NCBI GenBank assembly: GCA_004431415.1
Contig: QPMI01000514.1
Span: forward strand, 1 to 64,000
Direction: 5' to 3'
Length of the DNA: 64,000 nt
DNA from: Cyanophora paradoxa CCMP329
Lineage: Eukaryota; Plantae; Glaucophyta
A program made the translations under genes and the position numbers. Numbering within the stretch: position 1 is the first letter of the stretch; each line of letters starts with the position of its first letter. This document shows, piece by piece, positions 2,931-30,580 of the stretch. The notes beneath the pieces were generated by a model that searched no databases, was not told the DNA's origin, and saw only the letters and a list, made by a program, of their open reading frames with translations.

Positions 2931-3079
2931 ACGTAAACAATTATCGTGTGCTGCATGAAACATTTCGCGCGCATCGAGAGTATGTGATAGTGAATAGTTT
3001 CGCACTGAAAACGATATTACTATGATATATTAAGACTGATATTTTGTTGTTTTAATAGGTTCTTACTGAAATAGGTCAG

Positions 3080-3329: not shown

Positions 3330-3593
3330 TCACATAGGAGCACTCACAGGAATTTCGCTTGCCTTTCGAACAGTCCCCCGATTAAACGCTTGCTCTACAA
3401 TCGCTTCCTTTGTGAGTGGAATCGGAATTCCAGCAGCAATACACGATTTAACTTCTTTGTCCACAATCTCATCAATCGCGATTCTCGCCCTATTATGAGC
3501 CGCATTATCGATCCAATCCTGAACAGAGTAGGCACAGTATTCCATTCCCAGTTTCTCAGTCTCAGTTAGAACCACTTGGTAGATGTTCGACAT
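3330..3593 (-). CDS. Small phage-type protein, probably fibre-associated (87 aa)
   Basis: The WIDNAAHNRARIAIDEIV motif resembles small proteins I recall next to C1q-type fibre genes in marine phages. Lies 9 bp downstream of the C1q fibre gene. Confidence 0.7.
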   Translation of the reverse strand: MSNIYQVVLTETEKLGMEYCAYSVQDWIDNAAHNRARIAIDEIVDKEVKSCIAAGIPIPLTKEAIVEQAFNRGTVRKASEIPVSAPM

Positions 3594-11680: not shown

Positions 11681-12967
11681 ATGCGCGAGTATCTCAGCAT
11701 CAGTAGCCGTGATCGATCAGAGGGCTCGGCTCATTCCTATAAGGTGACCCTTCCAAAGCAATACCACAATGTGAAGAGCATCGCTGTGCGACAGATCGAA
11801 TTTTCCAACACGATTCCCACGGTTCCAAGCCCTCAATTCTATACTGAGATCGGGGAAACGAAAGCCGATGATGCTAATACGATTTTCATATCATTTCCTT
11901 ACCGATTTTCGAGCGGTCAGCTGAATGGTGCCACTCAGGAAATCAGAGATTCACAGGCAACTGCAATATATGACGCTTACAAAGCCATAGATGCTGGCGA
12001 CCAAGGCAACTATATACCGCCTGATTACCTAAACACTTTCAGAAGATATACCCGATACAGAGACGTAGCAATTACGATCCCTCCGGGCACATACTCGACT
12101 GGAACCGACCTTGCCACTGCAATCGATAACATCTTAACGAAAAATGGAACTGGCAACTACATCAAGGATATGATCGACACAAAAATTAATCCAAGCTACG
12201 CATCGACAGGGGGAACCTTTTACCCGGTGGTGAGATGTCGTTTTGAGAGCACATTAAATGCTATATGCTTTTATTCGAGTGATTATGTCTACATAGCTTT
12301 CACGAAATATGGACCGAGTAATGCCACTGGGTCTACTGCGAATGAAAGAAAGGTGCTCGCCTATCGCACGATGACTCTTCTCGGGTTTACATCGATCAGA
12401 GAGAATATAGTGATAGATCAATACAACGGATCGGGCTATACAGCCTTTGCTGGGAGTGGTGTCGTTTACTCAGCTGGTGATGCATTCCGCAATTATAATT
12501 CGACGGCTCTGGTCTTAGGCATAGCCGGAGGCACTGCCCCTGATTATACACCGGATAATGCAATAGTTTTAAAGATCACAGAGCCGGACTGCTCGCTTTT
12601 TACGACATGCACCGAGGCTACTAATGGATTCCTCGCTAAGATCCCGATTTCGAAAGGCACAGCCTATGCGGATGCTGAGCTAATTAATTATGGGGCGGAT
12701 GCTTTCACGAAATACTTTAACACCCGCCTCTCGTTTGATAGTTTAACCGTTCAAATTCTCACGGAGAGCGGTTATAGGTATTTCCTCGGAAGCTGTGAGC
12801 ACACATTCATTTTGGAAATTACTATGGGAGTGGATGAGCCCGACGACGATTTACAGCGCATTGTTAATAAGGGATTCGCGAAAATGCTATATGAGGACTA
12901 CCCGCATTGCGGCAATTTAACGAATGCGTTGAGCGGGGTGGCTGTAAAAAATAATCCGTTCTTCTAA
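11681..12967 (+). CDS. Minor capsid protein (penton-like), copy 2 (428 aa from ATG 11681)
   Basis: MREYLSISSRDR..YKVTLPKQYHNVKSIAVRQIEFSN..LAKIPI..SLTVQIL..EHTFILEI, homologous to copy 1. Confidence 0.8.
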   Translation: MREYLSISSRDRSEGSAHSYKVTLPKQYHNVKSIAVRQIEFSNTIPTVPSPQFYTEIGETKADDANTIFISFPYRFSSGQLNGATQEIRDSQATAIYDAYKAIDAGDQGNYIPPDYLNTFRRYTRYRDVAITIPPGTYSTGTDLATAIDNILTKNGTGNYIKDMIDTKINPSYASTGGTFYPVVRCRFESTLNAICFYSSDYVYIAFTKYGPSNATGSTANERKVLAYRTMTLLGFTSIRENIVIDQYNGSGYTAFAGSGVVYSAGDAFRNYNSTALVLGIAGGTAPDYTPDNAIVLKITEPDCSLFTTCTEATNGFLAKIPISKGTAYADAELINYGADAFTKYFNTRLSFDSLTVQILTESGYRYFLGSCEHTFILEITMGVDEPDDDLQRIVNKGFAKMLYEDYPHCGNLTNALSGVAVKNNPFF

Positions 12968-13000
12968 AATAAATTTCTCAGCGGAAGATAAAAACGAAAT

Positions 13001-14449
13001 ATGGATCCCACGACCTCGCTTAGCCGCCTCACGCTCAAATCCGTCCTGGAAACCCCGGAGGACTACAAGAGCATGCTTTTGGATCGCGGATTTATCGTAG
13101 GTGTGGACAAACAATTCAAGCCTTCTCGTGTGGAGGTGCTTCCAATTGCGGATCCCGGCAATCTGTTCTCCTCTACTGGTGCTACCACTCGTGTGGTCTT
13201 CTATCTCCCTCGCTACAATTGGTGCAATGGTATTAGCCTCCAAGTTACCATTCCGTCGGCGAAGGCGCTGACTGCCATCGCCAAGACCTCGGCTGACTGC
13301 TCGGCTGATCTATTCAATACTGGATTCGTCCGCGGGCTTCCTGGCTCGTTTGTTCAGCGAGTCAGCATTAAATACGGGTCGTATGAGCAAATTATTCCGG
13401 CTGAGCGCCTGGTAGATTACGCTTTCCTCGCTAACACTCCGGCTGAATTCGACCAAAAGAAGCGCAAGCATGGGCTGCATCTCGGACCGAAGGTAGAGGG
13501 CGGCAACCAAGCTGGCGGCATTTTTACCATGCGAATTCCGAGCTTCCTCGATGCTGGCGTGCCCATCGGTGCGCTCCCATCCGAAATCGCGGTCGAAGTA
13601 TATTTCCAAACCCCTGCGCTGCTCGAAACTGCGGCGGTTCCTGGCGTTTACGCTCAGAATAACACGACTGCAATTACTGCTGCCAATTCTACTGATGGCG
13701 AGACGACGCTTGCTGTTGCGGCTGCTTTCGGAAATATTAAGACCTTAGCTCACCCTAATGCCACTGCGATTTTCGATAGTGCGGCTCTCACACCTACACC
13801 TGCTCTTGCAAATCTGGAAATGACGACCCCTCGTCTTATTATGGATGCTGTTAACATCGATGAGGAAACGATGGGCGAAATCATTACTCGTGTTAAGACC
13901 TCTGGCATCGCCATCCCCTACACTGATATTCAGTTTGCGGATTATACCGGTCTTGCTCTCGGCTCCGGTCTCCGCCTGTCACTATCTCAAATTTCGGGAC
14001 TCGTTTACGCACTTGTTGTCAAGGTTCGCGACGAAAACACACTGGGCGATAATAAAGGAGGGCACTCTACTGTCCGCACCCTTGCCTTCGATGATAATGT
14101 CGTGATGCAAGTTCTAAATAACAACAATTACCTATATTCTAACACTGGTGTCCCGCTGCAATCCGCGGCTATGGAGCTCGCCGATAAATTCAAGATGACC
14201 AACTGGATCGATAGCAACAAGCGCCCCATTTACACTGGCTTCTGCTTTGCTCTCGATGGTAAAGCGGCGCTCAAAGGTGAGAAGGCGACTGGCTACGTCG
14301 ATCTAACTCAATCAGCTTCAAGTTTCCTGCTGCTCACACCCAATGGCACACCCCTCGCCACCTGGACAAAGGTCGGTGTTCAGATCTCGGCTTACTGCCA
14401 CAATATTCTTGTGATGAATGCCAATGGATTATCGCGCGTGACGGCATGA
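13001..14449 (+). CDS. Putative major capsid protein (double jelly-roll, 482 aa)
   Basis: Inferred from size, beta-strand-rich composition, position between penton and packaging ATPase, strong codon bias and a capsid-like C-terminus (ISAYCHNILVMNANG). No diagnostic motif. Confidence 0.75.
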   Translation: MDPTTSLSRLTLKSVLETPEDYKSMLLDRGFIVGVDKQFKPSRVEVLPIADPGNLFSSTGATTRVVFYLPRYNWCNGISLQVTIPSAKALTAIAKTSADCSADLFNTGFVRGLPGSFVQRVSIKYGSYEQIIPAERLVDYAFLANTPAEFDQKKRKHGLHLGPKVEGGNQAGGIFTMRIPSFLDAGVPIGALPSEIAVEVYFQTPALLETAAVPGVYAQNNTTAITAANSTDGETTLAVAAAFGNIKTLAHPNATAIFDSAALTPTPALANLEMTTPRLIMDAVNIDEETMGEIITRVKTSGIAIPYTDIQFADYTGLALGSGLRLSLSQISGLVYALVVKVRDENTLGDNKGGHSTVRTLAFDDNVVMQVLNNNNYLYSNTGVPLQSAAMELADKFKMTNWIDSNKRPIYTGFCFALDGKAALKGEKATGYVDLTQSASSFLLLTPNGTPLATWTKVGVQISAYCHNILVMNANGLSRVTA

Positions 14450-14523: not shown

Positions 14524-15246
14524 ATGGCGTATCTCGAACAAATGGAAGGGATCAGGCGAATCGCTTTGTGTGGAAAGCATGGCGAGGGCAAGTATGCGCT
14601 TATAGATGAAGCCGATTATGATCATGTCATGAAAATAAGCAAGTGGTATTACCATAACCAACGGGGATATGCATGGGGTTACATTGCTGGTGTAAAGAAA
14701 AACATCGACATGCACAAATGGATTTTCGGACATCAAGAAGGGCACTTTGTTGATCATATCAGTAGAGACAAACTCGATAATCGTCGCTGTAATCTTAGAT
14801 TCTTAACACCGCAAGACAGCGTATTTAATACGGGTATGAGAAAAAGAAACAAAACTGGTTTCAAAGGTGTTTGCCAAGAGAAAAGAACCGGTCGGTTCAG
14901 GGCAAGTATTCAAAAAAGTAGTGTCCCATACAATTTGGGGACGTTTGATACAAAAGAAGAAGCTGCTGCCGCTTACAACCAAAAAGCAAAAGAGCTATTT
15001 GGAGATCTTGCTGTTTTGAATGAGGTAAACCCTGAAATTAAACCAAAACCTCCTCTTTACTCACTGAATACAAGTGGATTTCGTGGTGTGACTGAAACAG
15101 CGACTGGAAAATGGGAAGGATGCTTTTCATATAAGAAACAGCGGTGGCGAAAAGTGTGCAACACAAAGGAGGAGGCTGCACTTTTCTACAACTCAAAAGC
15201 CAAAGAAATTCTCGGTGATAAAGCGATCCTCAATGATGTTGAGTAA
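14524..15246 (+). CDS. HNH endonuclease with two AP2 DNA-binding domains
   Basis: VDHISRDKLDNRRCNLR (HNH). NKTGFKGV..FRASI..LGTFDTKEEAAAAYN and NTSGFRGV..TKEEAALFYN (two AP2 domains). Confidence 0.93.
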   Translation: MAYLEQMEGIRRIALCGKHGEGKYALIDEADYDHVMKISKWYYHNQRGYAWGYIAGVKKNIDMHKWIFGHQEGHFVDHISRDKLDNRRCNLRFLTPQDSVFNTGMRKRNKTGFKGVCQEKRTGRFRASIQKSSVPYNLGTFDTKEEAAAAYNQKAKELFGDLAVLNEVNPEIKPKPPLYSLNTSGFRGVTETATGKWEGCFSYKKQRWRKVCNTKEEAALFYNSKAKEILGDKAILNDVE

Positions 15247-15303: not shown

Positions 15304-16227
15304 ATGACTGGAAACGTGAGTATAGAAGATCTTGCGGAATTCGACCCGGCAAGTCTTTCATTCCCTTGCCGTTTACTTGCTGTCGGAAAAACGGGAGTAG
15401 GTAAGTCAGTATTCTTAAAATACCTGCTTTACCACAACGAGGACAAGATAGATTCGGTGATGATATTCGCTTCCACGATCTGGAACCATCAATATGACAA
15501 TGTCACATCGTATTTGTATGAGGATTTCGATCATAAGCTGATCGACAATATAATACAGAAACGCAAGGAGCGAATCAAGAAAAAGGAGAAAGTCGGTAAC
15601 CTGTTAATCATACTCGATGATTTCATTGACAATCCAAGTCTTTCGATGTCAGGAAGAGGTGAACCTATATTAAATCAGCTATTCACGTCGGGGCGCCATT
15701 TATTCATATCTGTGTGGATTCTGTCACAAAAACTCACTAAGATTTCGCCGACACTTAGGGTTAACTCCGAATATATCTTTCTATTCTCGCTGCCCAACAG
15801 AAAAGAGATGGAGAGTGCTGAGGACGAGTTTAATCCATACGAAAAGCATTGGTTTGAGAAGGTAATGAACGAATACAGTCACAGCTATCAGGTTATCTGC
15901 ATTGACAACTCGAAATATAGCCTGGAATTCTCTGTGGGCAAGGCTGATCCGGTGCCTGACGAATATAAATTCAAGCGGTTCTTTAAAAAAGCGGTGGAAG
16001 AGATAAAGCCCGCTGGTAAACAGCCGGTAAAACAGAGCTCCACAGAGGTAAATGGCGACCAACCCCAAACCACCGATATAACGAAACCTGTGAGTGGAAA
16101 CGTCGCAACCTTAAAGCGATCCACCAAAAGGATAATCGAAGCCGACCTACTTAAAGACCCCAATCTATTGCTGGCATACCAAGAAAAGCGCCGCCCAAAA
16201 TTTGCGAAAAAATTGGGTAAATTTTGA
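15304..16227 (+). CDS. A32-like (FtsK/HerA) genome-packaging ATPase
   Basis: Walker A GKTGVGKS, Walker B LLIILDD, LFTSGRH and SQ..ISPTLRVN motifs. Confidence 0.93.
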   Translation: MTGNVSIEDLAEFDPASLSFPCRLLAVGKTGVGKSVFLKYLLYHNEDKIDSVMIFASTIWNHQYDNVTSYLYEDFDHKLIDNIIQKRKERIKKKEKVGNLLIILDDFIDNPSLSMSGRGEPILNQLFTSGRHLFISVWILSQKLTKISPTLRVNSEYIFLFSLPNRKEMESAEDEFNPYEKHWFEKVMNEYSHSYQVICIDNSKYSLEFSVGKADPVPDEYKFKRFFKKAVEEIKPAGKQPVKQSSTEVNGDQPQTTDITKPVSGNVATLKRSTKRIIEADLLKDPNLLLAYQEKRRPKFAKKLGKF

Positions 16228-16250
16228 ATAAATTTCTCGCATAATGATAA

Positions 16251-16922
16251 ATGCCACCCAAGAACTCGCGGAAAGCGATCCAAATGGAAGATCAAAGCGC
16301 TGTTGTCGCTGGCAAGATTAATCCTGCGGAGGATGCTGGTCGCACTGGCGGTGCTGCCGCTTCTGATCAAATAGATTTCGATCTGATTGACCCGAATACA
16401 AAGGTTTCAGAGCGTGCTCAAAAGGTGGATGCTAAGCGGGAGCCGGTCGATTCCACTGATAGAAAGCTGGCGGATCAATCCCTCGCTGAATCACAGCTCA
16501 CAGGCGAAAAGCTAACCGATAATAAGGTGGTAAAAGCCGAAGCAACAGCCGCTTTACCTGCATCGATGGAAGCCCCTAAAAAGCGGGCATCAGTATATGT
16601 GACCAAGGGCGAGAAAGTCGGTCAGGAATTAGAGGAGAAGTTTAGGGCGCTCGAAGCGCGACTGGCTACCTACGACACTACTGTGAGAGCCTTTGATGAT
16701 TTCACTAAGGAATACAAACAGCGCAAGCTGATTAAACAGGCTGTTCGCGTGGAAATGGAAAAGAAGCGGGCGACTGTTCCCGATGTTCAGACAGTCGAAA
16801 GAAAAGAGACAGTCATAGCTGAAAATGCACCAAAGCCGGGCGGTTTCGTTAACCCATCGGGTGTGCATGCACAGCCGGGTGCCAATCTGTCATCTATGTT
16901 TGGTGGGCGTCGTCGCTTCTAA
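16251..16922 (+). CDS. Hypothetical viral protein, charged coiled-coil (223 aa)
   Basis: Clean ATG ORF in tandem with the ATPase, preceded by an AATTTCTC...TAAATG motif. Confidence 0.72.
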   Translation: MPPKNSRKAIQMEDQSAVVAGKINPAEDAGRTGGAAASDQIDFDLIDPNTKVSERAQKVDAKREPVDSTDRKLADQSLAESQLTGEKLTDNKVVKAEATAALPASMEAPKKRASVYVTKGEKVGQELEEKFRALEARLATYDTTVRAFDDFTKEYKQRKLIKQAVRVEMEKKRATVPDVQTVERKETVIAENAPKPGGFVNPSGVHAQPGANLSSMFGGRRRF

Positions 16923-17133
16923 TGTGCAAATCGTTCAAACATAAATGAATCCGCCCGTATTTAGAGCGGGTCTTAATATGAATTCCCTTGCAAAAGGGAC
17001 AGGTCGGCTCCACAAACACCATTATAAGGTCGACTAATTCGTATGGGAACACGCGAGCAAGTAACACCCTCATTCCCTTTTCTTTTCTCCAATATTTAAT
17101 ACGTTGTGCAATATTAGGGTCGATGAATTTCAT
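16894..17133 (-). CDS. Possible small protein with CxxC..H motif
   Basis: MKFIDPNIAQRIKYW...CPFCKGIH. Overlaps the end of the previous gene; may be spurious. Confidence 0.3.
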   Translation of the reverse strand: MKFIDPNIAQRIKYWRKEKGMRVLLARVFPYELVDLIMVFVEPTCPFCKGIHIKTRSKYGRIHLCLNDLHIRSDDAHQT

Positions 17134-17149
17134 CACACAATGCATTGAG

Positions 17150-17470
17150 ATGTTTCACCTGCATTTCACAAGCACGTGCCACAACTCCTGCTGCGACACA
17201 ACCGTAGAGGTTGACATTTCGGACGAGGATAATGGAGGTAGGCGATTATCTGTATATTCCAACCACAGCGAAAATCACGAACTCCCACGATCTCGAACGC
17301 CCTCGCCTGTGCCCGCTGACTCCAATATAATCCCACAGACAGCAATAGAAGACGTGCAAGTATCCTATATACGGCGCCGGTCGTGCCCTAATTTCGTAGA
17401 AGGTCATATTCGCGTTGATTCGCCATATCCGCCAATTAATCCGCTTTATTTGGGCGAATACGATCGCTGA
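17150..17470 (+). CDS. Hypothetical protein (106 aa)
   Basis: ATG 17150 lies in ORF 16988-17470 and fills the gap between genes. No recognisable motif. Confidence 0.45.
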   Translation: MFHLHFTSTCHNSCCDTTVEVDISDEDNGGRRLSVYSNHSENHELPRSRTPSPVPADSNIIPQTAIEDVQVSYIRRRSCPNFVEGHIRVDSPYPPINPLYLGEYDR

Positions 17471-17653
17471 AACAATTTTCGCGGTAAATAGTATCGAATG
17501 CCCGACCCTGATCTCTACGCGATCCTATACAGGAAACGCGCGCAATACGCATTGGAAGACGCTATTAAAAAACGTAGAGAAGAGCTCGCTTCGGTCACAA
17601 AAAATGACAGCTCAGAAAATGATTTAAAGAAGAAATAGCAAAGACCACTGATA

Positions 17654-17678
17654 AAAATATTTTCTCAGCTTAAAGTAA
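17654..17678 (+). promoter_or_regulatory. Duplicated 25-bp promoter-like motif AAAATATTTTCTCAGCTTAAAGTAA (second copy 24959-24983)
   Basis: An exact 25-bp match lies 9 and 15 bp before the ATGs of two unrelated ORFs. Both copies are preceded by AAAATGATTTAA. Confidence 0.7.
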
Positions 17679-17687
17679 GGTAAACCA

Positions 17688-17909
17688 ATGGAGACGCATG
17701 CTATGACTGTGTATGATAAGAACGGGAACCCGGTAGATCTCGATAAGGCGGGCTGGCGTGTCAGGGATATATATAAACAGCGGATGCGCTATAACGACGA
17801 TCCCGAATATCGCGAATTAAAAAAGAAAAAGGCGCTAGAATATTACTACCGTCGCAAGCAAGAAGAGGGCATCCATAGTGGAAACCGCGGGCGACCCCGC
17901 AAGTATTAA
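17688..17909 (+). CDS. Small basic protein with C-terminal AT-hook-like RGRPRK
   Basis: 73 aa, Lys/Arg/Tyr-rich. Preceded by a 25-bp motif shared with ORF 24999. Confidence 0.7.
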   Translation: METHAMTVYDKNGNPVDLDKAGWRVRDIYKQRMRYNDDPEYRELKKKKALEYYYRRKQEEGIHSGNRGRPRKY

Positions 17910-18088: not shown

Positions 18089-20434
18089 ATGGACACCAAA
18101 AGTAAATCGATGCTCACCAAACTCACTAAGTGGCTTCGTTCGACCGATGAGCTGGCTCAAAACCTCCTTATTCCGGTCGATCCTGTAACCAAACAACCTG
18201 AATTTCCCCATAAAAATGGAGCCTGGAACTGGAAGAAATACGAGGACGCCGTTAAGGAAAACAGGTATATTGCATGGGGAATTCTCGCTCGCAACATCGT
18301 CTGTATTGATTTCGATCAGGAGGAGGATTTCAATAAGTTCGAAGAGCTTTTCCCCAACGATTTCACAGCTGCTATTCCAATCGAGAAAACAAGCAAGGGT
18401 TATCATGTGTTCTTCGCTCGACCTCCCAAGTTCGATGAGCTGAAACTGTTTGACAAACCCGGAGCTTTCCGGGGCTATGATAAGATCGATCTGAAAACGG
18501 TTTGCTCTACCGGAACTGCCGGGGTAATTAATGTCTGCCCAAGCCCAAACAAGACATGGATCAGGGAGCCATGGGCTGCTGAATGCGAGTTAATTGAGCC
18601 ATCTGCGGAATTCCAAAGCTGGATGATTGAGAACTACAAAAAGCCGTTCGTCCGTGACATTGATCAGTCGAAGATACATGGCAATGAATTCCTTACAGCT
18701 CTCAAAGACAAACTAACTGAGTTCGGGTTCGATTTCCCAACAATCATCAGTCAAACCGAAAATGGCTACAACTTCACAGCTCAGAACAAAGGCGGAGTCT
18801 GCCCCTGCTGCACCAATTCGCATGATAGCAATAGCTGGTATGTGATTAAAATTTCAGATCCCGATGCAAAGGACAAATTCATTGTTTCGAGTTACAGTTC
18901 TCGATGCAAGAAGCGAATTATTGAGGTCAGGACGAAAACTGAAAAGGATACTGAGCTGATAGTTCTCATTGATAAGGCAATTGGATCGAATGGCGCACAC
19001 TATGATGTCGCGAAAGTGTCGCATGTAGTTCTCAAAGATGATTATCGCTACTCAAATAAGACCTGGTTCGAGTTTAATAGGGATAATGGAATCTGGGAGA
19101 TGGATGACACTGGAAAGCGAATTTATCTGGCTCTCAGCTGCAAGGTATGCCCTGTGTTTCTGTCTCGCTCATATAGCCTGGGAACAGCTGCGATGAGGGA
19201 CGAAGAGAATAGGCAAAGCTTAGAGGAAAAGGCTAAACTCGCTGTGAATATTGGCAAAAATCTCAAACAAACATCCTATCGCACATCTCTTATTACTGAT
19301 CTAATTGTAATGTTCAGCGATCCCACATTCTTTGAAAAACTCGATACTGTCACTAATGTCATTGGTTTCGATAATGGGGTCTTTGATATTAACACCAAGA
19401 CATTCAGAAAGGGAAAGCCTACTGATATGGTGAGCAAGACAGTGGGTTACGAGTATATGGCTGTCGACCGTGAGAAAGTAGCGAAAATTCAGTCAATCTA
19501 TACAGATATAATCGAAGAGTATGAGGAGCGCAATTATATTCTCGGGTCGCTTGCTTTCGCTCTCACAGGTCGCACAGATATTCAGAAGTTCAATTTCTGG
19601 TCTGGAAAGGGCGCGAATGGGAAATCCTGCATTCAAGAGATGGTGAAACAGACTTTCGGCGATTATTTCGGCTCAATCAGCATGAGCTATTGGACAAAGC
19701 CAAAGAAGAACTCGTCCGATGCCACACCCGAGCTTGCTGCAATTCTGGGCAAACGCATTGTGTTCAGTAATGAGGCGGAGGATGGTGACAAGCTCCAAAT
19801 CAGTAAGATTAAGGAAATCACAGGTGGAAATGAGATGAAGGTTCGCGCTCTCTTTAAGGATCCTGTAACCTTTATTCCCATGTGTCAAATATTCCTGTCC
19901 ACCAATGATAACCTGTCTCTCAGCAAGGCTGACGAAGCTATTTTGCGAAGGCTGGTTTACTACACATTCAAGTGTGTATTTAAGCCGAATCCCAAGGAGG
20001 GCGAAAAGAAAGCTGATACCAAGCTGATGACTCTATTGCATGATGATGAGTATAAGATGGCGCAAATGTCTATTTTCCTGGATATGCTCGCCCAACAAGA
20101 CCTTGCCACTTTGATGCAAAACCCACCCCAATCGATTGTCGACTGTGGCTCTGAGTATTTCGCTGAAAATGATAAGCTCGGCGAATGGCTCAAAAATACC
20201 TATGAGAGGACTGGAAGCCGCGATGACTTTATTTCGAGTGACTCTATTGTGAAGAAATATAGACAGGTCGATGATAAGGCGGAGCCCACAACAATTGGAA
20301 AGCGAGTTCGCGAGATATTCAATGTTAAATCCGAGCCCAAGCGGGAGAGAGGCGCACTGATGCGCGGCTATTTCGGAATGAAAGCCAAGATGCACCACCA
20401 AAACGAATTTCTAGATGATGATATCGAAGCCTAA
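18089..20434 (+). CDS. Primase-polymerase (AEP/Prim-Pol) fused to D5-like SF3 helicase
   Basis: N-terminal CIDFD and EKTSKGYHVFF (Prim-Pol). CPCC..H..C zinc motif. D5_N IGFDNGVFDI. Walker A GKGANGKS, IVFSNE, IKEITGG..VRALF, AILRRL. Confidence 0.93.
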   Translation: MDTKSKSMLTKLTKWLRSTDELAQNLLIPVDPVTKQPEFPHKNGAWNWKKYEDAVKENRYIAWGILARNIVCIDFDQEEDFNKFEELFPNDFTAAIPIEKTSKGYHVFFARPPKFDELKLFDKPGAFRGYDKIDLKTVCSTGTAGVINVCPSPNKTWIREPWAAECELIEPSAEFQSWMIENYKKPFVRDIDQSKIHGNEFLTALKDKLTEFGFDFPTIISQTENGYNFTAQNKGGVCPCCTNSHDSNSWYVIKISDPDAKDKFIVSSYSSRCKKRIIEVRTKTEKDTELIVLIDKAIGSNGAHYDVAKVSHVVLKDDYRYSNKTWFEFNRDNGIWEMDDTGKRIYLALSCKVCPVFLSRSYSLGTAAMRDEENRQSLEEKAKLAVNIGKNLKQTSYRTSLITDLIVMFSDPTFFEKLDTVTNVIGFDNGVFDINTKTFRKGKPTDMVSKTVGYEYMAVDREKVAKIQSIYTDIIEEYEERNYILGSLAFALTGRTDIQKFNFWSGKGANGKSCIQEMVKQTFGDYFGSISMSYWTKPKKNSSDATPELAAILGKRIVFSNEAEDGDKLQISKIKEITGGNEMKVRALFKDPVTFIPMCQIFLSTNDNLSLSKADEAILRRLVYYTFKCVFKPNPKEGEKKADTKLMTLLHDDEYKMAQMSIFLDMLAQQDLATLMQNPPQSIVDCGSEYFAENDKLGEWLKNTYERTGSRDDFISSDSIVKKYRQVDDKAEPTTIGKRVREIFNVKSEPKRERGALMRGYFGMKAKMHHQNEFLDDDIEA

Positions 20435-20507
20435 TTACAAATGAATTGAAAATGATTACTTTCGTGTGTATTTTTTATAACCTGCGGCAAATTGTAGTTG
20501 TTTACGT

Positions 20508-20598
20508 TGTTACAGGTGTTACAGGTTCATCCCAAACTCGGGAACCGAGACCCCCCTCCTAGGGCGGACTTTGGGATAGACCTGTAACACCTGTAACA
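20508..20598. repeat. Internal 91-bp palindromic iteron module, candidate replication origin
   Basis: Same arms and loop type as the TIR modules, 73 bp after the primase-helicase stop codon. Confidence 0.88.
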
Positions 20599-20709
20599 CT
20601 GACCATTTTCAGTAAGCCCCTTTTAATATTTGTGGAACTTTAAACATGAATATGTAAAAATTGATCATGTTATATAAGAGTTCCTTTGATTGTTTGTAGT
20701 GACTTAGAA

Positions 20710-20970
20710 ATGGAGACCTACGATGTTAATGTGATGTCCCGCGATCAATTGATTCGACTCGCTGATTCGGGTGATACAGATGCAATAGCCGAATTGCTAT
20801 GGCGAATGCACCATTTGGATGCAAAGAAACAGAAGCGCCGCGCCCATGTTATTAAAGCCGATAACATTGAGCTCACCGTTATACTTCCCGAAAATGTAAA
20901 GCTCACAGTCCGGAGCGTCACTAAGCTCACCGGGAAAAATTTGTCGGGGCGCACCATACAAAGTCCGTAA
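20710..20970 (+). CDS. Hypothetical protein (86 aa)
   Basis: ATG ORF 53 bp after an AAAATTGA motif. Confidence 0.6.
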   Translation: METYDVNVMSRDQLIRLADSGDTDAIAELLWRMHHLDAKKQKRRAHVIKADNIELTVILPENVKLTVRSVTKLTGKNLSGRTIQSP

Positions 20971-21022
20971 AATTTGATCATCGGGAAAAATTATTTTCAG
21001 ACATAGCACGACACCGAATCAA

Positions 21023-21301
21023 ATGGAAAACGATATGCAAATTAGCCTTAACGATGTTATTAAGCATTTGGCGTGGGAGAAGATGAGCCTTAGATTCCAA
21101 AAGCACGGGCGGAAATTCGAAAATGAGGTGAGTGAGCGGAAATTCGACAGGAAAATACTGCAACTGACTGAAAAGAGAATAGGAGAGTGTATTCTGGGTT
21201 CCAATAGCGCACGTAGAACTGCAAAGACATTGCATAGCGCGCATTATACGCGCCAAAGGCTCCGGGAGAAGCTGGCTGAACGCGCCGAAAATGAGAAATA
21301 A
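21023..21301 (+). CDS. Hypothetical basic protein (92 aa)
   Basis: ATG ORF 54 bp after AAAATTTGAT, directly upstream of pPolB. Confidence 0.6.
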   Translation: MENDMQISLNDVIKHLAWEKMSLRFQKHGRKFENEVSERKFDRKILQLTEKRIGECILGSNSARRTAKTLHSAHYTRQRLREKLAERAENEK

Positions 21302-21323
21302 AAATGTTCCCTTAGAGTAAAAG

Positions 21324-24300
21324 ATGCCCCGCCAAACTAATCGCCTTATAAAAGAGAAAAAGGACGAAATATTAGGCTTGTTAGGTAGTCTTTTAGTCAC
21401 TGGGGAGATCACCGAAGCCGAATATGATCGTAGGGCGGCGATCTTAGATCGAAAACCCCGCTTAGCTAACCTCGGAAATATTGCCGACGAGCTCTATAAT
21501 CGCCTGGAAAATGTGGAGCGCTTCTATACCGAAGGGCGGCGCTTAGCCGTCATAGAACCCGATGAGGACGACGGTTTCGCAATGAATAAAGCATACGCCT
21601 GGTATAGCTATAAGGCGGATGAACAGATAATCTTAGATCCGGTGGAATTTCTCACTACCATCGCTGCAAACCTGCCTGGGCGGCTGAAAGAGAGGCTGGA
21701 CGAGCTCAAAGCTATTAAGGTGCGCCTTACTTTCATCTGCCGATACGTAAAAGTGAGTGATCCTAACGTTTTTATCACCAAACACATTTACAGCGATTAT
21801 TTCGTAATCACAAGGTCGCGCAATATTCTCACTGAGTTAGTGGGTGTAGCTCAGCAAATGAATGAACAGATGATACAGGTCGACAGCTACCGGCTCAGTA
21901 AATTAGATAAGCTACATGTCGCCGTTTTGTCATATGCGCCGATGGGCGGTTGCTACATTGAGACCCCCGAATGGATTGGATTAAAGCGAGCCACAGTAAA
22001 TATTAAGAATATCGATGGTCACGACTGTTTTAATTACGCTATCCTCGCATGGCTGCACAGAAACGACATAAACAGACACAAACGTAATGATCCGTTCCAA
22101 TATAGGCGGTGGATGACTGAACTCGACTTCTCAGGCATTAACTTCCCGGTGGCTTGCGATGCTGCATTAATAGATCGTTTCGAGGACAATAATCCCGAGC
22201 TGTCAATTAATATATATGGCGCCGACAATGCGACCCAAACCTTTTATCCACTGCACATGTCAAGTAATCCGCGTCGTAAATCGAAGGTAAACCTGCTGCT
22301 GATCGAGGACGCAAACGGACAGGGTCACTATATTACGATTATGTCACTGAGCCGCCTATTAAAGACCACCTTTGATAAAGCAAACGACGGGCGCATTTTC
22401 TACTGCGAAACCTGCTTGTCCCGGTTTAGATCACAGGAGAAACTCGATAGCCACACCGACTCTAATCGCTGTATCGATTGGCGGCTGAGTAAAGGTAAAT
22501 GCCCGGAGCCCGGAAGCTTTATTACTTTCGGACTGCAACACCTAAGGAAAATGGTGTGGCTTCCTACTGTCTGCTACTGCAAGGTAGAGATGGAGTCGGT
22601 GCCGGTTCCTAATGAACCAAATCGAACCAAGCGAGAGGTAAAGTCGGTGGCACTTAATGTAGTTATGGGCTCGCATGTTGAAAATCACGAATTCGAGGGG
22701 GTGGATCCGCTGGGACAGATGTTTACCACGTTAGGGGATCTGTGTCGCGAGATGCTTAATACCCTATTTACCAACACACCTATGATTCCGCTCACAGAGG
22801 CGCAAAAGCAAGCCTATAAAATCACGAAGCTATGCTATATATGCAATCAGCGATTTACCCACGAAAACTTCCCTGTGCGGGATCACTGTCACCAAAGCGG
22901 CGATTATATAGGAAAAGCTTGCCGAAAATGCAATTTACATAGGAGGATCTCAAAGCAAACGAAAGTAGCCGTGGTCATTGATCGAATGGATGAGTGCGGG
23001 CATGCTATATTCAGGAAAATCGCACAGCAAGACGACAAGCTGCGGGTCGAGATCCTAAGTAAGAATTTCGACGAGTATCTCTCTTTACAGTGGGGACTTT
23101 ACAAGTTTATAGACGCCTCGAATTTCATGGATTTTCAGGCGTCCGATGTTAATGATCTCATGGTAAAATTCGGTAAATTCAGTATGCTCGCCCATGAGCA
23201 ATACGGACTGGATCCCACGCATTATGTGAGCGCACCGGGACTATCGTGGGACGCGATGTTAAAGCATACGAGGGTCGCGATAGAACAGATCAGCGATGCG
23301 GATCAATACGAATTTATTGAGCGGGCAATTAGGGGCGGCTTTGCGACCATGCCCACACGATATGCCGAGGCTAATAGCGAGGATAAACATATAGTGCTAT
23401 TGGATGCGAATAATCTATATGGCTATGCGCTCAGTCAGTCTTTACCGGTCGGGGACTATCGCTGGGACGACACAAGCACAGCTTTTACCGAGGTTGTAGG
23501 GCGGAGTGCATTTATAGAGGTCGACCTTGCCTATCCGGACTATTTAAAGGCTGACCATCGCGATTTCCCGCTGATCGTGAGTAAAGAGGTAATTACTGCG
23601 GACATGCTCGGCAAATATCAGCGTGGGCTTTTGGAGATTAGCGGCGAGAAGCTCAGTAAAGATCCGAAGCTGATCGCCTCGTTTACCCCGAAATATAATT
23701 ACGTGGTCTCTCAGCCGATGCTGCTCTATATGGTAAAAAAGGGGATCGTAGTTACTAAGATCCACCGTGTGCTCTCGTTTGCAACTGCTGCATTTATGAA
23801 GCCCTATATAGATCTGAACACGAAACTGCGAAAGGAAGCCCGGAATAAATTCGAGAGCGACTTTTTTAAATTGATGAACAATGCTATTTACGGTAAATGC
23901 CTGGAATCGTGTCGCGGGCGCTCAGTGGTAAAGATCGCGAATAGCACGAAGCTGTTTAAGAAATATGCGGCGAGCCCACTGGTAAAAGCGACGAATGTAT
24001 TAAACGAGACTGCGGTCGCCTTTGAAATGTATAGTAAACACGTAAAACTCGATAAACCGGTTGCGATTGGCGCTTATGTGCTGGATGCCGCGAAGCTACA
24101 TAATTATAGCTTCTTTTACGACGTGATCCGACCGACTTTCGCGCAAGCTCAGCTGCTGTTCCACGATACCGACTCGTTCTGTCTGTATATAGAGAGCGCG
24201 GATCTGGAAGCTGGCATGCGAGCGATCAGCCCTTATTTAGATTGCCCTAATAGTCCCGAGAACCGGATGGTTCCCGGTAAATATAAAAATGAGATGCCCG

Positions 24301-24587
24301 ACGTCAAGATAGTGGAGTATGTGGGGCTGCGACCGAAGCTATATGCTTTCCGCACCGAGAGCTACGACAAGGTAAAAATGAGCGGGACAGCCTCGAAAGA
24401 GGTGCATTTCGACGACTTTAAGCGCTGCCTATTTGACGGGATCACAAAAACAGTAACAGTAGTAAACAAGCAACGGCGATGCCACCACTTATATGATTTG
24501 GAGAGCAAGCGGATAGCGCTGACCCAATTCGATAGCAAGCGCTGCATATCAGGCGACGGCATACATAGCCTTCCATTCGGCTGTTAG
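21324..24587 (+). CDS. polB: Protein-primed family B DNA polymerase (Polinton type) with zinc-finger/endonuclease VII-like insert
   Basis: Motif A LLDANNLYG, motif B KLMNNAIYGK, motif C HDTDS, GLRPKLY, YGLDP..SAPGLSWDAMLK. Insert CYIC..VRDHCH..G.Y...AC..CN. Confidence 0.95.
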   Translation: MPRQTNRLIKEKKDEILGLLGSLLVTGEITEAEYDRRAAILDRKPRLANLGNIADELYNRLENVERFYTEGRRLAVIEPDEDDGFAMNKAYAWYSYKADEQIILDPVEFLTTIAANLPGRLKERLDELKAIKVRLTFICRYVKVSDPNVFITKHIYSDYFVITRSRNILTELVGVAQQMNEQMIQVDSYRLSKLDKLHVAVLSYAPMGGCYIETPEWIGLKRATVNIKNIDGHDCFNYAILAWLHRNDINRHKRNDPFQYRRWMTELDFSGINFPVACDAALIDRFEDNNPELSINIYGADNATQTFYPLHMSSNPRRKSKVNLLLIEDANGQGHYITIMSLSRLLKTTFDKANDGRIFYCETCLSRFRSQEKLDSHTDSNRCIDWRLSKGKCPEPGSFITFGLQHLRKMVWLPTVCYCKVEMESVPVPNEPNRTKREVKSVALNVVMGSHVENHEFEGVDPLGQMFTTLGDLCREMLNTLFTNTPMIPLTEAQKQAYKITKLCYICNQRFTHENFPVRDHCHQSGDYIGKACRKCNLHRRISKQTKVAVVIDRMDECGHAIFRKIAQQDDKLRVEILSKNFDEYLSLQWGLYKFIDASNFMDFQASDVNDLMVKFGKFSMLAHEQYGLDPTHYVSAPGLSWDAMLKHTRVAIEQISDADQYEFIERAIRGGFATMPTRYAEANSEDKHIVLLDANNLYGYALSQSLPVGDYRWDDTSTAFTEVVGRSAFIEVDLAYPDYLKADHRDFPLIVSKEVITADMLGKYQRGLLEISGEKLSKDPKLIASFTPKYNYVVSQPMLLYMVKKGIVVTKIHRVLSFATAAFMKPYIDLNTKLRKEARNKFESDFFKLMNNAIYGKCLESCRGRSVVKIANSTKLFKKYAASPLVKATNVLNETAVAFEMYSKHVKLDKPVAIGAYVLDAAKLHNYSFFYDVIRPTFAQAQLLFHDTDSFCLYIESADLEAGMRAISPYLDCPNSPENRMVPGKYKNEMPDVKIVEYVGLRPKLYAFRTESYDKVKMSGTASKEVHFDDFKRCLFDGITKTVTVVNKQRRCHHLYDLESKRIALTQFDSKRCISGDGIHSLPFGC

Positions 24588-24788
24588 TCGTCTATCTTAT
24601 CGTGCGTTCTTTTTCTTGGTTTGCGCTCTAATTGAAGGAGCTGTCGCCTTAGAATATGGAGAAGCCATATGCACTTTAATCCGGGGTCGTCAGGGTCGAT
24701 TAGGAAGTAATTGGGGATCGGGTGCGCGTCCCATACCGGATCATTCATTTTACTGTTTACTGCACGTTTTTATTGCGCGTTTTGCGGT

Positions 24789-24835
24789 GTTTATTGTCAG
24801 GATTTTCATTAATTATTAAAATCTCGACAATAAAC
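24789..24835 (+). terminator. Intergenic hairpin downstream of pPolB
   Basis: GTTTATTGTC..GATTTT / AAAATC..GACAATAAAC stem with an AT-rich loop. Function inferred. Confidence 0.4.
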
Positions 24836-24998
24836 GCTCAGGTAGCCTGATTTTATTGACAGTAAACGTGAGAGTCTCACCGCGGATCGTCAAAAATTGA
24901 AAGCCCCGTGGGCAACGCAAAATGATTTAAGGAGAACGCGCTACATTTAGGCAACAGGAAAATATTTTCTCAGCTTAAAGTAAAAGGCGACGGCGAAA

Positions 24999-25607
24999 AT
25001 GGCGTATCTGTTCAAAGGACAACCTATTTTCGTTTATCCTCTTTCGGATCTATCATTTAGCACCGTGGAACTATTTGATATCCTCTTTTCATTTGATACT
25101 GATCGCATGCCATTTACCTTTGTAAATACACTCTTTCGTAGAGCCGATATTCAATCTATTGGTTTCTTTATTGAAGAACCGCACAAGATAGTCATTCGAT
25201 CAATAAATAATGTGTTTGCGTATGTAAGAGCATCCAACGATGAGATATCCTATAAGTATACCATCAAGAAAGTAAATGATGAAGACGAGGGAGGATATCA
25301 ACCTGTTCTGGATTTCTGGCGTCTCGTAAGATGCACACAATATAAGATGACTGATGTAATCAAAGCCATAAAGCGTGAGCACGAACCACAGTCGATACAG
25401 CTTATCTATTTCAATGTTAAACGCAATCTGTCCACATATCATAAGAAGTTTGAAGAGCATGGACTGCAAATTACCCGCCGCACCACCTTGCGTAAATTCT
25501 TAAAAGACAATGGAGCGAAATGGAGTCGCGTTAGCCGAATGTGGTATACTGACGTTAGTAATCCTAATAGAATCGTTGCCAATATATTCTGTCCCAATTT
25601 ACCGTAA
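24999..25607 (+). CDS. Hypothetical protein (202 aa); C-terminus resembles the DUF5710 'GAKW...WY' motif
   Basis: Clean ORF with an upstream promoter-like motif. LKDNGAKWSRVSRMWY. Confidence 0.68.
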   Translation: MAYLFKGQPIFVYPLSDLSFSTVELFDILFSFDTDRMPFTFVNTLFRRADIQSIGFFIEEPHKIVIRSINNVFAYVRASNDEISYKYTIKKVNDEDEGGYQPVLDFWRLVRCTQYKMTDVIKAIKREHEPQSIQLIYFNVKRNLSTYHKKFEEHGLQITRRTTLRKFLKDNGAKWSRVSRMWYTDVSNPNRIVANIFCPNLP

Positions 25608-25670
25608 ATAAACAAGACCTTTTCTTGTCGCGTGCGAGTAAAATGTTACATTGATCTTTTTTATTGTCTG

Positions 25671-27113
25671 ATGACAAGGATGTCAAGACCGCCAATAGTA
25701 AGACGATCGCAAGATTTAGAGGGGAGCACATTGCCGATCCCCGTGCCCAAAGAGAATAAAGAGAGCCGCATAGTAAAGCGGTCTGATTTAAAGGCTTTGG
25801 TGCCCCGCGACGTGCCCGTAGCCCTTGCTGTCCCGGAGGAATCGAAAATCGCCCGGAAGTTTTATAGTCCGCAAACCGGTTTCAAAGGGATCACTAAGCT
25901 ACGGCAAGAGCTGCCCAATGAGAATTATAAGAAATTGCAAGAGTGGTATAGCCGGCAAGAGGTCGTTCAGATTAATGCGCCGCACCTATCCCGCAAACGA
26001 GACCCGGCTATACCGATCCGACAGCCTCTCGATACCTACGTAATTGATCTGCTATTCTTTCCCGCTTACTCGAAGTATAATGATAATTACAGTGCTTTTC
26101 TCACGGCTATGGAGAACACATTACGGGTCGGGTTCATTATCCCGATGCGGGATAAGTCCGCGGCGTCGACCTTAGCCGCCTTTATACAGCTGCAAAATAA
26201 GGCGCCGAGACCAATTTTTAAGATTCAAAGCGACCGCGGCTCAGAATTCACTAATAGCCTGTTAAGAGAATATTTCGAGAATCAGTTTATCGAGCATCAG
26301 ATAGCGGACACAGCCGACCATCGCGCGCAAGGGCGCATAGAAGCATTTAACAAGCAAATGCGACGGCTGATCACGAGCTACTGCATCGCTAATAATACGG
26401 CGCGATTTATAGATGTCCTGCCCGAATTAGAATATAACTATAATAATACGGTGCACTCTGCGACCGGCTATATGCCTGCGGAGACCAACGAGAGTCACTA
26501 TAAGCTTATAGTGCAAAAAGAAGATGCGAAATTCAAGAAATCGATAGCTTATTTGGATCAGATTCAGCCGGGCATGTCAGTAAGGCTACGCATCGAGAAG
26601 ACGCCGTTCGCTAAGGGCGGTAACAATTGGAGCCGAATCGTATATACTGTCGCCGCGCGCGAGGGCTATAAGTTTATGCTAACTGATCCGGACGGCAATC
26701 GCGTAGAGGGTCGCTTTGCCTTCCACGAGCTTTTACCGGTTCAGGCGGTCGATTACCTAATGGCGCCCACAGTAGATGCATTAGAGGCGGCAAAGGACGA
26801 GGCGCGCGTCGATGCGCAATTGCGTAGAGAGGGCATAGAAGCCGCCGCGACTGTGCCGCAAGGCACTCTATTAGAGGATCGCGTGCAAAAAGAGAAACGA
26901 GTAAATAAAGAATTACAGCGGCTAGTAACCGCCGCCGAGCCTAAGCTATCCGGCGGCGTGAATAGCCAACGATGGTATAAGTCGTTCTCTAATCAGACTG
27001 AGAGCTATAAAGCGCCGGAAACCAAAGCTACATTAAGAAGTAGTAGAAAAGTAGCAACGGTAGCGCCGGTAGCTAATGGCGATCGAAAAGCGACTCTGAG
27101 ACCACGAAAGTAG
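25671..27113 (+). CDS. int: Retroviral-like (rve) DDE integrase, Polinton type
   Basis: YVIDLLF (D), IQSDRGSEF (D), GRIEAFNKQMR (E), YNNTVHSATGYMP, then an SH3-like VRL..FAKG..NWS segment. Confidence 0.95.
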   Translation: MTRMSRPPIVRRSQDLEGSTLPIPVPKENKESRIVKRSDLKALVPRDVPVALAVPEESKIARKFYSPQTGFKGITKLRQELPNENYKKLQEWYSRQEVVQINAPHLSRKRDPAIPIRQPLDTYVIDLLFFPAYSKYNDNYSAFLTAMENTLRVGFIIPMRDKSAASTLAAFIQLQNKAPRPIFKIQSDRGSEFTNSLLREYFENQFIEHQIADTADHRAQGRIEAFNKQMRRLITSYCIANNTARFIDVLPELEYNYNNTVHSATGYMPAETNESHYKLIVQKEDAKFKKSIAYLDQIQPGMSVRLRIEKTPFAKGGNNWSRIVYTVAAREGYKFMLTDPDGNRVEGRFAFHELLPVQAVDYLMAPTVDALEAAKDEARVDAQLRREGIEAAATVPQGTLLEDRVQKEKRVNKELQRLVTAAEPKLSGGVNSQRWYKSFSNQTESYKAPETKATLRSSRKVATVAPVANGDRKATLRPRK

Positions 27114-27482
27114 TAGGCGCCGCGGTGCTTTCGTAGCCGCCAAATCGCGCGCTTTGCGAATCAGACCGCGCCACTTTGTAGTAGTGTAGAACTACTCTAT
27201 GCGCGCGCGGATGCAAAGTATGACTAGTGGAGCCGCACGGGAACGCGCGCCGGCGCTCAGAATGTAGCGGACACCTCGGTTTTCGGGCACTTGTGCCGAT
27301 GGCGAACTTGCGCGTCGCGCCACGGTTGCGTAAGCTAGTCAAAGCATAACCATCATGCCCGGAATCAAGTTGTGAGCACATAGCAATTGAGAGCGCGCCG
27401 AGATCGGCTTCCTGTCCAAAGTTATGCGGGGAAAACGGAAGGGGGGGTCTCCGCGAAGTCGCGATCGCCGGTGTTATCGAGT

Positions 27483-27555
27483 CGGGACTCGGGACTCGGG
27501 ACTCGAAACTCGGGACTCCGGGACTCGGGACTCCGGACTCGGGGCTCGGGACTCC
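27483..27555 (+). repeat. (GGGACTC)n-like degenerate heptamer array
   Basis: About 10 imperfect copies. Confidence 0.85.
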
Positions 27556-27679
27556 AAGTATCATAGTTTAGGCTACCGCCGACCGCCGAGTTGGCTCAGC
27601 GGCTCACCGAGTCAGAGGCTTACTAAAAGTTAGAGCCCCGAGTCAAAAATAACAAACAATTAAGTAATTTGGTGGGGAA

Positions 27680-27957
27680 TTTGTAACCGATTTGTAACCG
27701 GTTTGTAACCGGTTTGTAACCGATTTGTAATCGCATCAGAACGCGCGAACGAAGTGAAGTTGCCTACACTTTATGAATGGGAAATCTGAAATACATTTGT
27801 AATCGCATCAGAACGTGCGAACGAAGTAAAGTTGCCTACACTTTATAAATGGGAAATTTCAAAAAATCTGAAATACATTTGTAATCGCATCAGATTGCGC
27901 GAACGAAGTAATTTCAGCTATACCTTCTGTAATCGCATCAGAATGCGCGAACAAAGT
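27680..27957 (+). repeat. Subterminal tandem repeats: 11-bp TTTGTAACCGR x4-5, then four copies of a ~30-bp TGTAATCGCATCAGAACGCGCGAACGAAGT unit
   Basis: 30-bp unit at 27726, 27798, 27880 and 27928. The first two belong to 72-82-bp tandem units. Confidence 0.85.
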
Positions 27958-28208
27958 ATTACAATGAAGAAAAACCATAAAATACTACTTTGTGGCATGC
28001 TATATGTTTTTGGAATCGCCGCGATGTGATGACCCCGACTAGGTCGGTGACGCCGGTGTATATATGTATATGTTGCCATATGAGAAAAAAACAAAAAAAA
28101 CAAAAAATTCAAAGTTGTGCGGGATCACACACACGGAGGTTCGGACATATATACGAAATATATACATGACTAAATCGTTATTGTTTTCATAGAACTCGCA
28201 TGTAGTTT

Positions 28209-29109
28209 GCATGTATCTTGCATAGTGGGCGGGGCTTTTTCAATCCTGAGACTGATAACAATCATAAAACAAGGTGTTACAAGTGAATTTATAGATTCTC
28301 AGTAAGGTGTTACAGGTGTTACAGGTCTATCCCAAAGTTTCCTGTCCCCCACCCCCTCCTAGGGCAAAGTTTGGGATGAACCTGTAACACCTGTAACACT
28401 GACCTATTTCAGTAAGAACCTATTAAAACAACAAAATATCAGTCTTAATATATCATAGTAATATCGTTTTCAGTGCGAAACTATTCACTATCACATACTC
28501 TCGATGCGCGCGAAATGTTTCATGCAGCACACGATAATTGTTTACGTTGTTACAGGTGTTACAGGTCTTGCCCAAACTCGGGAACCAAGACCCCACTCCT
28601 AGGGCGGACTTTGGGATAAACCTGTAACACCTGTAACACTGAATAAGACCAATTAAAATACAAAAGAATCAATCATAATATATCATAGATCTACTTTGTT
28701 TTATAGAGAGCCGCATACAGAACGTTCCATGCAGCTCATGGTAGTTGTTTTTGATGAAACGACGCATGATCGTCGCTTATGCATTGAAAATTCAGAACAA
28801 CACACATATACAACGCCCGGTTTTTAGACTGAGGCAAGTTATAATTAAACTAAGTTGAGTCACACCTATTCTATAATGAAACTCACGATATATATAAGTC
28901 TACTCATCGAGAATATAGCTAAACTTCACATAAACTATACATATTTCACATATTTTATTAAAAAGAAGCTATAACCCACGATAAAATAAATACATATCAC
29001 AGATAAAATACACACATATTCACGATAGATATATTATAAATACAGGTTATATACTAACGATATCAATTTAAATTAGCCGAGGTCTAAAAACCGGGCGTTG
29101 TATATGTGT
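28209..29109 (-). repeat. Right terminal inverted repeat (901 bp)
   Basis: Reverse complement of 2370-3269. Confidence 0.96.
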
Positions 29110-29115
29110 AACCAT
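29110..29115 (+). repeat. Target-site duplication AACCAT (right copy)
   Basis: Matches 2364-2369. Confidence 0.93.
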
Positions 29116-30095: not shown

Positions 30096-30580
30096 AATAC
30101 TAAGTTATAACTAATTACTTATGACGCAAGCGCACACACGTAAAAAAACACGAGAAGTACGCAGCAGCCGAGCCAAAACGCGACGGAGCCCCTATTGAAA
30201 CTCCCGACCTCGTACTCAATTGGCACTTTGAGTACGGACCAGTAGTAAAACACCGCTGTCACCGCCTGGCGGCGCCTGCCAGTGGGCTGCCAGCCTGCCA
30301 CGTACGCGTGCACGTGAAGCCGCACTGCGGCAGCCGCTGAGCGCACGCGCGTGCACGTGACTGCGAGCTAGTCTGCCACGCCCGGCCGGCCCACGCGTAC
30401 GGTCCGGTACTATACTGGAGAGCTGGAAATATTTAGTGGGCTGTATATTAATTTATAGCACTAATTTATAAATGTTTTTGGGCGATCTACTAAATATTTC
30501 CCGTCTGCTAGAGCCGAGAATTTTTAGTCCCATCTCCACGATACAAAAGCCCTGCAGCTGAGAAGACTGACCTACTTTAA
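30096..30580 (-). repeat. Host interspersed repeat, inverted copy of ~815-1626
   Basis: Collinear reverse-complement blocks, as listed for 815-1626. Confidence 0.75.

Follow-up and report, generated by a model that had tools for sequence, protein, structure and literature searches.

A 91-bp iteron palindrome behind the primase-helicase gene and in both ends of an integrated polinton-like virus of Cyanophora paradoxa: a candidate helicase loading site

Why does a short palindromic module stand directly behind a primase-helicase gene, and why does it recur twice in each end of the element that carries this gene? We addressed this question in a window of 64 kb from Cyanophora paradoxa CCMP329, which is the whole stretch of DNA that was analysed (64,000 nucleotides) and which contains five copies of a 91-bp module. 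We consider it probable that the module is the binding and loading site, that is, the replication origin, of the primase-SF3 helicase encoded upstream of the internal copy. Binding of the helicase to the iterons and firing of the origin are predictions, drawn from a structure model and from analogy with known systems.

The element that carries the modules is an integrated polinton-like virus, and it encodes two replicases. It spans 26.7 kb (2370-29109) with a GC content of 44% in a GC-rich host, its ends read AC...GT, and the stretch was present in 20 sequencing runs from 16 named studies, all of one organism; one of these may itself have given rise to the window. Its polinton-like virus features comprise a capsid protein (recognised by Atlas features only), a packaging ATPase, terminal inverted repeats, a target duplication and an integrase with an rve match below the cut-off, and fibre-like proteins are also encoded. 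The main features are as follows.

2370 to 3269, + strand: left terminal inverted repeat of about 900 bp, with a 6-bp target duplication at 2364-2369
2370 to 2677, no strand assigned: self-inverted terminal cassette of 308 bp, the terminal 28 nt of which recur perfectly inverted at 2650-2677
13001 to 14449, + strand: likely double-jelly-roll major capsid protein (Atlas Capsid_N/Capsid_NCLDV clusters, 0.98)
14524 to 15246: HNH-AP2 protein
15304 to 16227, + strand: A32-type packaging ATPase (Pfam Pox_A32, E 9.7e-11)
18089 to 20434, + strand: Prim-Pol / D5_N / SF3 primase-helicase of 781 aa (Pfam DUF5906, E 4.6e-10; D5_N, 7.4e-9)
20177 to 20392, + strand: predicted RFX/P4-type winged helix at about residues 697-768, the candidate iteron-binding domain
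21324 to 24587, + strand: protein-primed-type PolB (pPolB), with polymerase motifs present and exonuclease motifs degenerate
25671 to 27113, + strand: rve-type integrase (Pfam rve, E 1.7e-4, below the curated cut-off)
28209 to 29109, - strand: right terminal inverted repeat, with the target duplication at 29110-29115

The second replicase, pPolB, is 46% identical to its nearest homologue P0270 and keeps an N-terminal region. About 100 aa of its exonuclease domain are absent, a gap that is common to P0270 and largely to P0320 (7 sequences aligned), and a weak Endonuclease_7 match was also seen in the protein. For the capsid protein, a set of 5.8 billion proteins yielded no sequence homologue at E 0.001 among the candidates that were scored, and the protein possibly represents an unsampled lineage. 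The terminal cassette has a counterpart at the right end (28802-29109, where 28802-28829 pairs with 29082-29109), and its inverted likeness consists of 28 perfect bases and about 45 at 82-84%; a displaced 3′ end could use it to fold back and prime its own extension, or the cassette could be a captured miniature element with the same ends.

Other features of the element and its surroundings were recorded along the way. A promoter-like intergenic motif of the TTTCTC(A)GC type precedes several genes (12967-12992, 16227-16251, 17654-17678 and 24959-24984), the sites at 17654 and 24959 forming an exact 25-bp repeat. Between rve and the right terminal repeat, 27469-27960 holds short tandem arrays of the CGGGACT type, of the TTTGTAACCG type and of 69-72 bp. 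The fibre-like genes at 4669-10660 contain 36-bp and 57-bp repeats, and fibre segments of 150-220 bp recur at 7160-7740 outside the called ORFs, suggesting fibre-segment shuffling. Outside the element, a 54-bp inverted pair (93%) at 1573-1626 and 30096-30149 lies in repeat-rich flanks of 50% GC, and the virus may sit within another mobile element; the 28 host ORFs scanned gave no informative Pfam match.

The modules and the parts of the internal copy are given below.

2840 to 2930, no strand assigned: module A of the left terminal repeat, 470 bp from the terminus
3080 to 3170, no strand assigned: module B of the left terminal repeat, 710 bp from the terminus
20483 to 20626, no strand assigned: patch common to module I and the terminal repeats, the likeness ending about 25-28 bp beyond the module on each side
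20508 to 20598, no strand assigned: module I (internal), 73 bp after the helicase stop
20508 to 20525: left iteron pair of module I
20526 to 20538: first arm of module I
20539 to 20567: GC-rich loop of module I
20568 to 20580: second arm of module I
20581 to 20598: inverted iteron pair of module I
28308 to 28398, no strand assigned: module B of the right terminal repeat
28548 to 28638, no strand assigned: module A of the right terminal repeat

The original prediction had placed five 91-bp modules at 2840, 3080, 20508, 28308 and 28548, with the sole internal copy 73 bp after the helicase stop (at 20434), and we found all of them there. Every module is composed of (TGTTACAGG)2, a 13-bp arm, a 29-nt loop with CCTAGG, another 13-bp arm and (CCTGTAACA)2. 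Applied to the first 30 kb of the window, a sequence-blind detector picked out exactly these five. Of the 21 exact matches to TGTTACAGG in the 64 kb, 20 fall inside the modules. With up to one mismatch, the iteron was matched 36 times in the 64-kb window, a count reached by none of 100 shuffles (6.8 expected). The left and right terminal repeats mirror each other apart from one indel in about 900 bp, and for this reason the five copies amount to only three distinct sequences, A (2840/28548), B (3080/28308) and I (20508). These agree in all 36 iteron bases and in their length of 91 bp, while the loop and flanks have diverged between A and B, a pattern that speaks for the origin reading. The iterons were therefore invariant as claimed, but the claim of an invariant spacing needs loosening: one contig variant, present in all 4 runs compared, appears to have a loop longer by 1 nt, and the family as a whole thus does not keep to one strict spacing. 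Likewise, the loops had been described as divergent, which is true of B (20 differences from A and 20 from I, 14-15 of them within the 29-nt loop) but not of I against A, whose loops are identical at 27 of 29 bases (2 differences, and 7 in 91 overall).

Pairing between the inner arms is incomplete (3-4 mismatches in 13), and the arms of I are those of B with their order swapped relative to the loop. I carries an A-like left flank and a B-like right flank. A and B start 240 bp apart in each terminal repeat and have a diverged flank in common; the pair in each end likely goes back to an old tandem duplication, after which the iterons were preserved. The 55-bp centre of the module is 53-58% GC and its loop 66-76% GC, and the flanks of the module are AT-rich (21-40% GC). 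As single-stranded DNA, I folds at -33.9 kcal/mol (z -8.4), and the folding z of the module strands ranges from -5 to -10. The cumulative GC skew showed no switch at the internal module, a measure that is weakly informative for a 27-kb element.

If the module is a helicase site, the protein encoded next to it should offer a domain to read it. The primase-helicase matches ASFV C962R and poxvirus D5, and its best full-length homologue, P0121, is 38% identical. No TOPRIM domain was matched; its N-terminus matches Prim-Pol instead (E 4.1e-4, 21.3 bits, just under the cut-off of 22.8), as do 9 of 30 aligned relatives. Relatives of the helicase with genomic context were not found in viral contigs, where P0169 also had no match, and P0121 had none in metagenomes. 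At the C-terminus, residues 670-781 group with Pox_D5 clusters in the Atlas (0.96; the family is on 30-72% of members), and Pfam and sequence searches detected no winged helix. A structure model of residues 601-781 (mean pLDDT 86) gave RFX5 (Z 10.8, rmsd 2.2, 78 aligned; Foldseek E 2.2e-4) and RFX1 on its X-box (Z 10.3, rmsd 1.8, 70 aligned; Foldseek E 2.2e-3) as the top folds of the C-terminal domain, with the next row at Z 6.8 and the P4 origin-binding domain (1ka8) at Z 6.2, rmsd 2.5 and 71 aligned. The winged-helix-like C-terminus that had been proposed is thus borne out as a predicted fold, by its resemblance to RFX5. The RFX half-site is GTTRCY (PMC10530576), and the iteron core GTTACA matches it at 5 of 6 positions. 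A fold in common with RFX does not demonstrate binding. An R-G-Y-x-G wing motif is common to this helicase and some GTTACA-flanked phage helicases; we rejected it as a diagnostic, given that giant-virus D5s without modules have K-G-W-x-G. Comparisons by profile and by single sequence did not establish that wing and iteron vary together.

We then turned to the layout of the iterons in other viruses, and searched IMG/VR for a generic form, GTTACA-n3-GTTACA and its inverted pair separated by 45-72 nt. This gave 65 loci, compared with none for the same pattern with a shuffled hexamer. The loci fell into 36 clusters, from each of which one representative was scanned, and a primase or helicase gene lay within 1.5 kb in 21 of the 36, a denominator that keeps two coding repeats (L023, L035/L052) and two clusters that are probably one family. 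Pfam recognised 17 of these genes (91 ORFs scanned) and PHROGs 4 more, the latter in a scan that took in 51 of 81 ORFs and one other; those left aside had already gone through the Pfam scan or belonged to the control. The layout was found 6-225 bp after the stop in 11 of the 21 positive clusters and in the last 500 nt of the gene in 3; in the others it was inside a fused gene (1), at 764 bp (1) or upstream of the start (5). The other 15 clusters lacked a recognised primase gene over this distance. To put the share in proportion, the present helicase finds a match in 870 of 50,697 phage records, which is a lower bound for all primase families, and a random-position control of 6 loci, with no primase among 10 of 25 ORFs scanned (5 loci), is too small to weigh. 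Because the neighbouring proteins span D5, VapE, DUF3987, AAA_25 and DnaG-type, the link of GTTACA is to primase-helicases broadly. The modules were in tandem in two loci (L044 and L065), and the exact 9-mer layout was absent from the metagenome collection. The outward-facing arrangement was commoner, with at least 120 loci, so the orientation of the module here is not special. In 6 of 12 P4-like loci from bacterial genomes, the surroundings of the stop hold a hexamer in both orientations, with 4+2 copies or more, and P4-like satellite loci with their own short repeats around the primase stop include L157-L159, L161 and L165. As a separate observation, six loci (L009, L011, L017, L025, L050 and L062) carry GTTACA modules directly ahead of a small terminase gene; many of them lack a recognised primase gene in the vicinity, and they possibly mark a boundary between replication and packaging modules.

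Viral D5 genes gave a different picture. The original prediction had suggested a search for iteron palindromes downstream of the D5 gene in related elements. No module was found near the stop in 80 viral D5 loci (mostly giant-virus genes, 2 of them without downstream DNA), and the sequence-blind detector returned one unrelated match in the 1.39 Mb around these genes. Most of the 80 loci carry a similar winged helix with no module, so the domain does not imply an iteron origin. Two loci belong to the same Prim-Pol subfamily, L290 and L291, and the module was absent after the gene in both. L290 is a polinton-like virus with a helicase 26% identical to the present one, a recombinase-like gene and no pPolB in the stretch examined, and its capsid protein showed no similarity to that of our element. 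It has a perfect 938-bp terminal palindrome (16772-17709) with paired direct repeats (20-bp and 9-bp period), although the mirror symmetry may be an assembly fold-back.

Among known systems, the rep-ori of SaPI/PICI elements (PriRep5, Rep1) resembles the present arrangement in two ways: a primase-SF3 helicase with a C-terminal winged helix, a fold that is predicted here, and short iterons directly after the gene, here 2+2 and 73 bp after the stop. In SaPIs, the iterons follow immediately after rep, with at least two on each side in opposite directions (PMC9371898). However, SaPI/PICI origins have 6-12 iterons and an AT-rich centre, in contrast to four iterons, a GC-rich centre and 13-bp inner arms here, and the present module has extra copies in terminal repeats and belongs to a eukaryotic capsid-encoding virus. 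The archaeal plasmid pRN1 offers a second comparison. Its ORF904 and phage BIP-1 have the same order of domains, Prim-Pol, D5_N/SF3 and an RFX/P4-like winged helix (PMC4234260 and PMC2777425), and the plasmid has a stem-loop 54 bp after orf904 (PMC4234260). As in our element, this is an inverted repeat of about 100 nt shortly after the stop, and that of pRN1 works when moved elsewhere; the same kind of domain is present in ORF904, for which no specific binding site was found (PMC2777425). The pRN1 origin lacks iterons, is single-copy and lies on a circular plasmid, unlike the tandem 9-mers here. Given the GC-rich centre on the one hand and the presence of iterons on the other, we filed the module under neither SaPI nor pRN1. 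The P4 alpha protein is comparable: through a winged-helix origin-binding domain, it acts on short repeats at two or more sites, including one beside the gene. The P4 repeat is reportedly TGTTCACC, and crr is said to be positioned next to the P4 gene. The P4-like loci that we examined had GGTGAA repeats beside the gene. P4 differs from our element in its TOPRIM primase (PMC4234260) compared with an AEP Prim-Pol here, in its different repeat and in having no terminal repeats. The proposal of a satellite-phage-style origin is in this respect sustained in part and indirectly, by the predicted winged helix and by the GTTACA layout beside phage primase genes, but not in the centre of the module, which is GC-rich unlike that of SaPI.

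How might such a site work? The winged helices of the helicase would bind the GTTACA iterons on both sides, and two helicase rings would load face to face, with the 55-bp centre between them. Extrusion of the stem-loop might assist, as proposed for pRN1, and the Prim-Pol domain would provide the primer. Gene and origin likely move as a unit, and the end copies likely arose when the site was copied there and then duplicated. Loaded at these copies, the helicase would be 470-710 bp from each terminus, in a position to open the ends for the exonuclease-degenerate pPolB or to start strand displacement. An internal primer cannot finish a linear end, so completion would call for terminal-protein priming with help from the helicase, for fold-back, in which the displaced 3′ end folds onto the 28-bp inverted copy, or for a circular or integrated template. 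Counting against the origin reading, four of the five copies are far from the helicase gene. A more far-reaching version, in which an origin of phage style, with GTTACA iterons recognised by the RFX-like winged helix of the element's own primase-helicase, has been installed in both ends beside a fold-back terminus and provides a terminal-protein-free start or a helicase-assisted hybrid with pPolB, is put forward tentatively, as a possibility that we hold to be rather doubtful.

Alternatively, the module could serve the terminal repeats as an end or recombination signal, and the internal copy would be the scar of a former right end, left behind when a pPolB-integrase module joined a capsid-plus-primase virus. 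In that case, no action of the helicase on the module would be required. This alternative, which we regard as unlikely, draws on the right-end orientation of the internal copy with its A-left and B-right flanks, and on its swapped arms, which suggest arm-to-arm exchange. Moreover, the GC content at four-fold sites sets pPolB and rve (0.61-0.62) apart from the other 11 genes (0.25-0.55), and contigs of the same organism show a different sequence just upstream of pPolB (loose end at 21304). Repeats bracketing second replicases have also been described, and Figure 6 of that report marks small repeat arrays and palindromes (bioRxiv 10.64898/2026.10.13.758929). However, the likeness to the ends stops 25-28 bp from the module, which is less than an end remnant should keep, and a scar leaves both the GTTACA layout beside phage primase genes and the RFX-type domain unexplained. 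A composite history and an origin role are compatible, and both can be true. Contigs over 19000-22500 (4 runs) further included diverged helicase-like contigs and a form without 20931-21295; together with the four-fold GC, such contig variants suggest that 21300-27113 is possibly a separately mobile polymerase-integrase module. Contig depth looked greater over pPolB than over the helicase, but as it does not measure copy number we gave it no weight.

It is less likely still that the module is a transcription signal, either a site for a regulator (e.g. HNH-AP2 or a host protein) or a transcript-ending RNA hairpin. I lies 73 bp after a stop and the left B 159 bp after the ORF 3330-3593, the module strand folds strongly, and an RFX-like half-site could attract a transcription factor too. 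Yet the sequence-blind detector found no such module at any other gene end in the element, the right-end copies are 1.2-1.5 kb from any gene, a hairpin has no need of tandem iterons with a fixed 9-bp period, and the Rfam search gave no match.

Ends of the TG...CA type with sub-terminal repeats are reminiscent of those of some DDE transposons, and the module could in principle be a MITE with TGT...ACA ends that inserted independently into a virus which itself encodes an rve integrase. We aligned contigs from 4 of the 24 listed runs to 20430-20680, an assay in which contigs drop rare variants and which is not a genome-wide count. The 27, 30, 30 and 19 contigs gave 4, 5, 6 and 4 types of loose end, namely loop variants (in one of which the C-run and CCTAG are retained and the length appears greater by 1 nt), B-like flanks and a few others, and no contig in the 4 runs joined the flanks across 20430-20680 in a way that skips the module; so few types make the module a small family in few contexts. 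The alternative that the original prediction had named, a module scattered through host DNA with its own target duplications, is accordingly disfavoured and very improbable: no target duplication surrounds A, B or I and flanks are common between copies, no module occurs in the approximately 37 kb of the window outside the element, and the AC...GT ends of the element differ from the TGT...ACA of the module.

The origin reading, which we prefer, meets a literature in which its general idea has been voiced. A published hypothesis holds that the inverted repeats of polinton-like viruses are an origin for the primase-helicase, and names no iteron or binding site, the word 'iteron' not occurring once in the paper (PMC11296320). 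In Halocafeteria elements, terminal palindromes were linked with replicases other than pPolB, and pPolB and a D5 primase-helicase occur together in some elements (bioRxiv 10.64898/2026.07.28.741278); there the palindromes adjoin the target duplication, whereas here the modules are 470-710 bp inside the ends and behind the gene. The abstract of a 2026 preprint calls the replication strategies of most AEP-SF3 polinton-like viruses unknown. We found no iteron origin for a polinton-like virus or virophage in the literature, supplements and most subscription papers aside. The view that such an arrangement had not been known for a Polinton-like element is upheld for the iteron origin but not for the ends as a helicase origin, a hypothesis already in print (PMC11296320).

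What sets the module apart is its presence in both ends and a domain-site pair that is directly testable: with a 91-bp site and a protein domain of about 75 aa, one binding experiment could test the published hypothesis that the ends are origins. If the origin reading is true, the initiator-helicase and iteron logic of satellite phages would extend to an integrated eukaryotic virus; it would explain the function of part of the long terminal repeats and would bear on how work is shared in elements with two replicases. If the hybrid or terminal-protein-free version is also true, a GTTACA/RFX-type recognition code would span phages and a eukaryotic virus.
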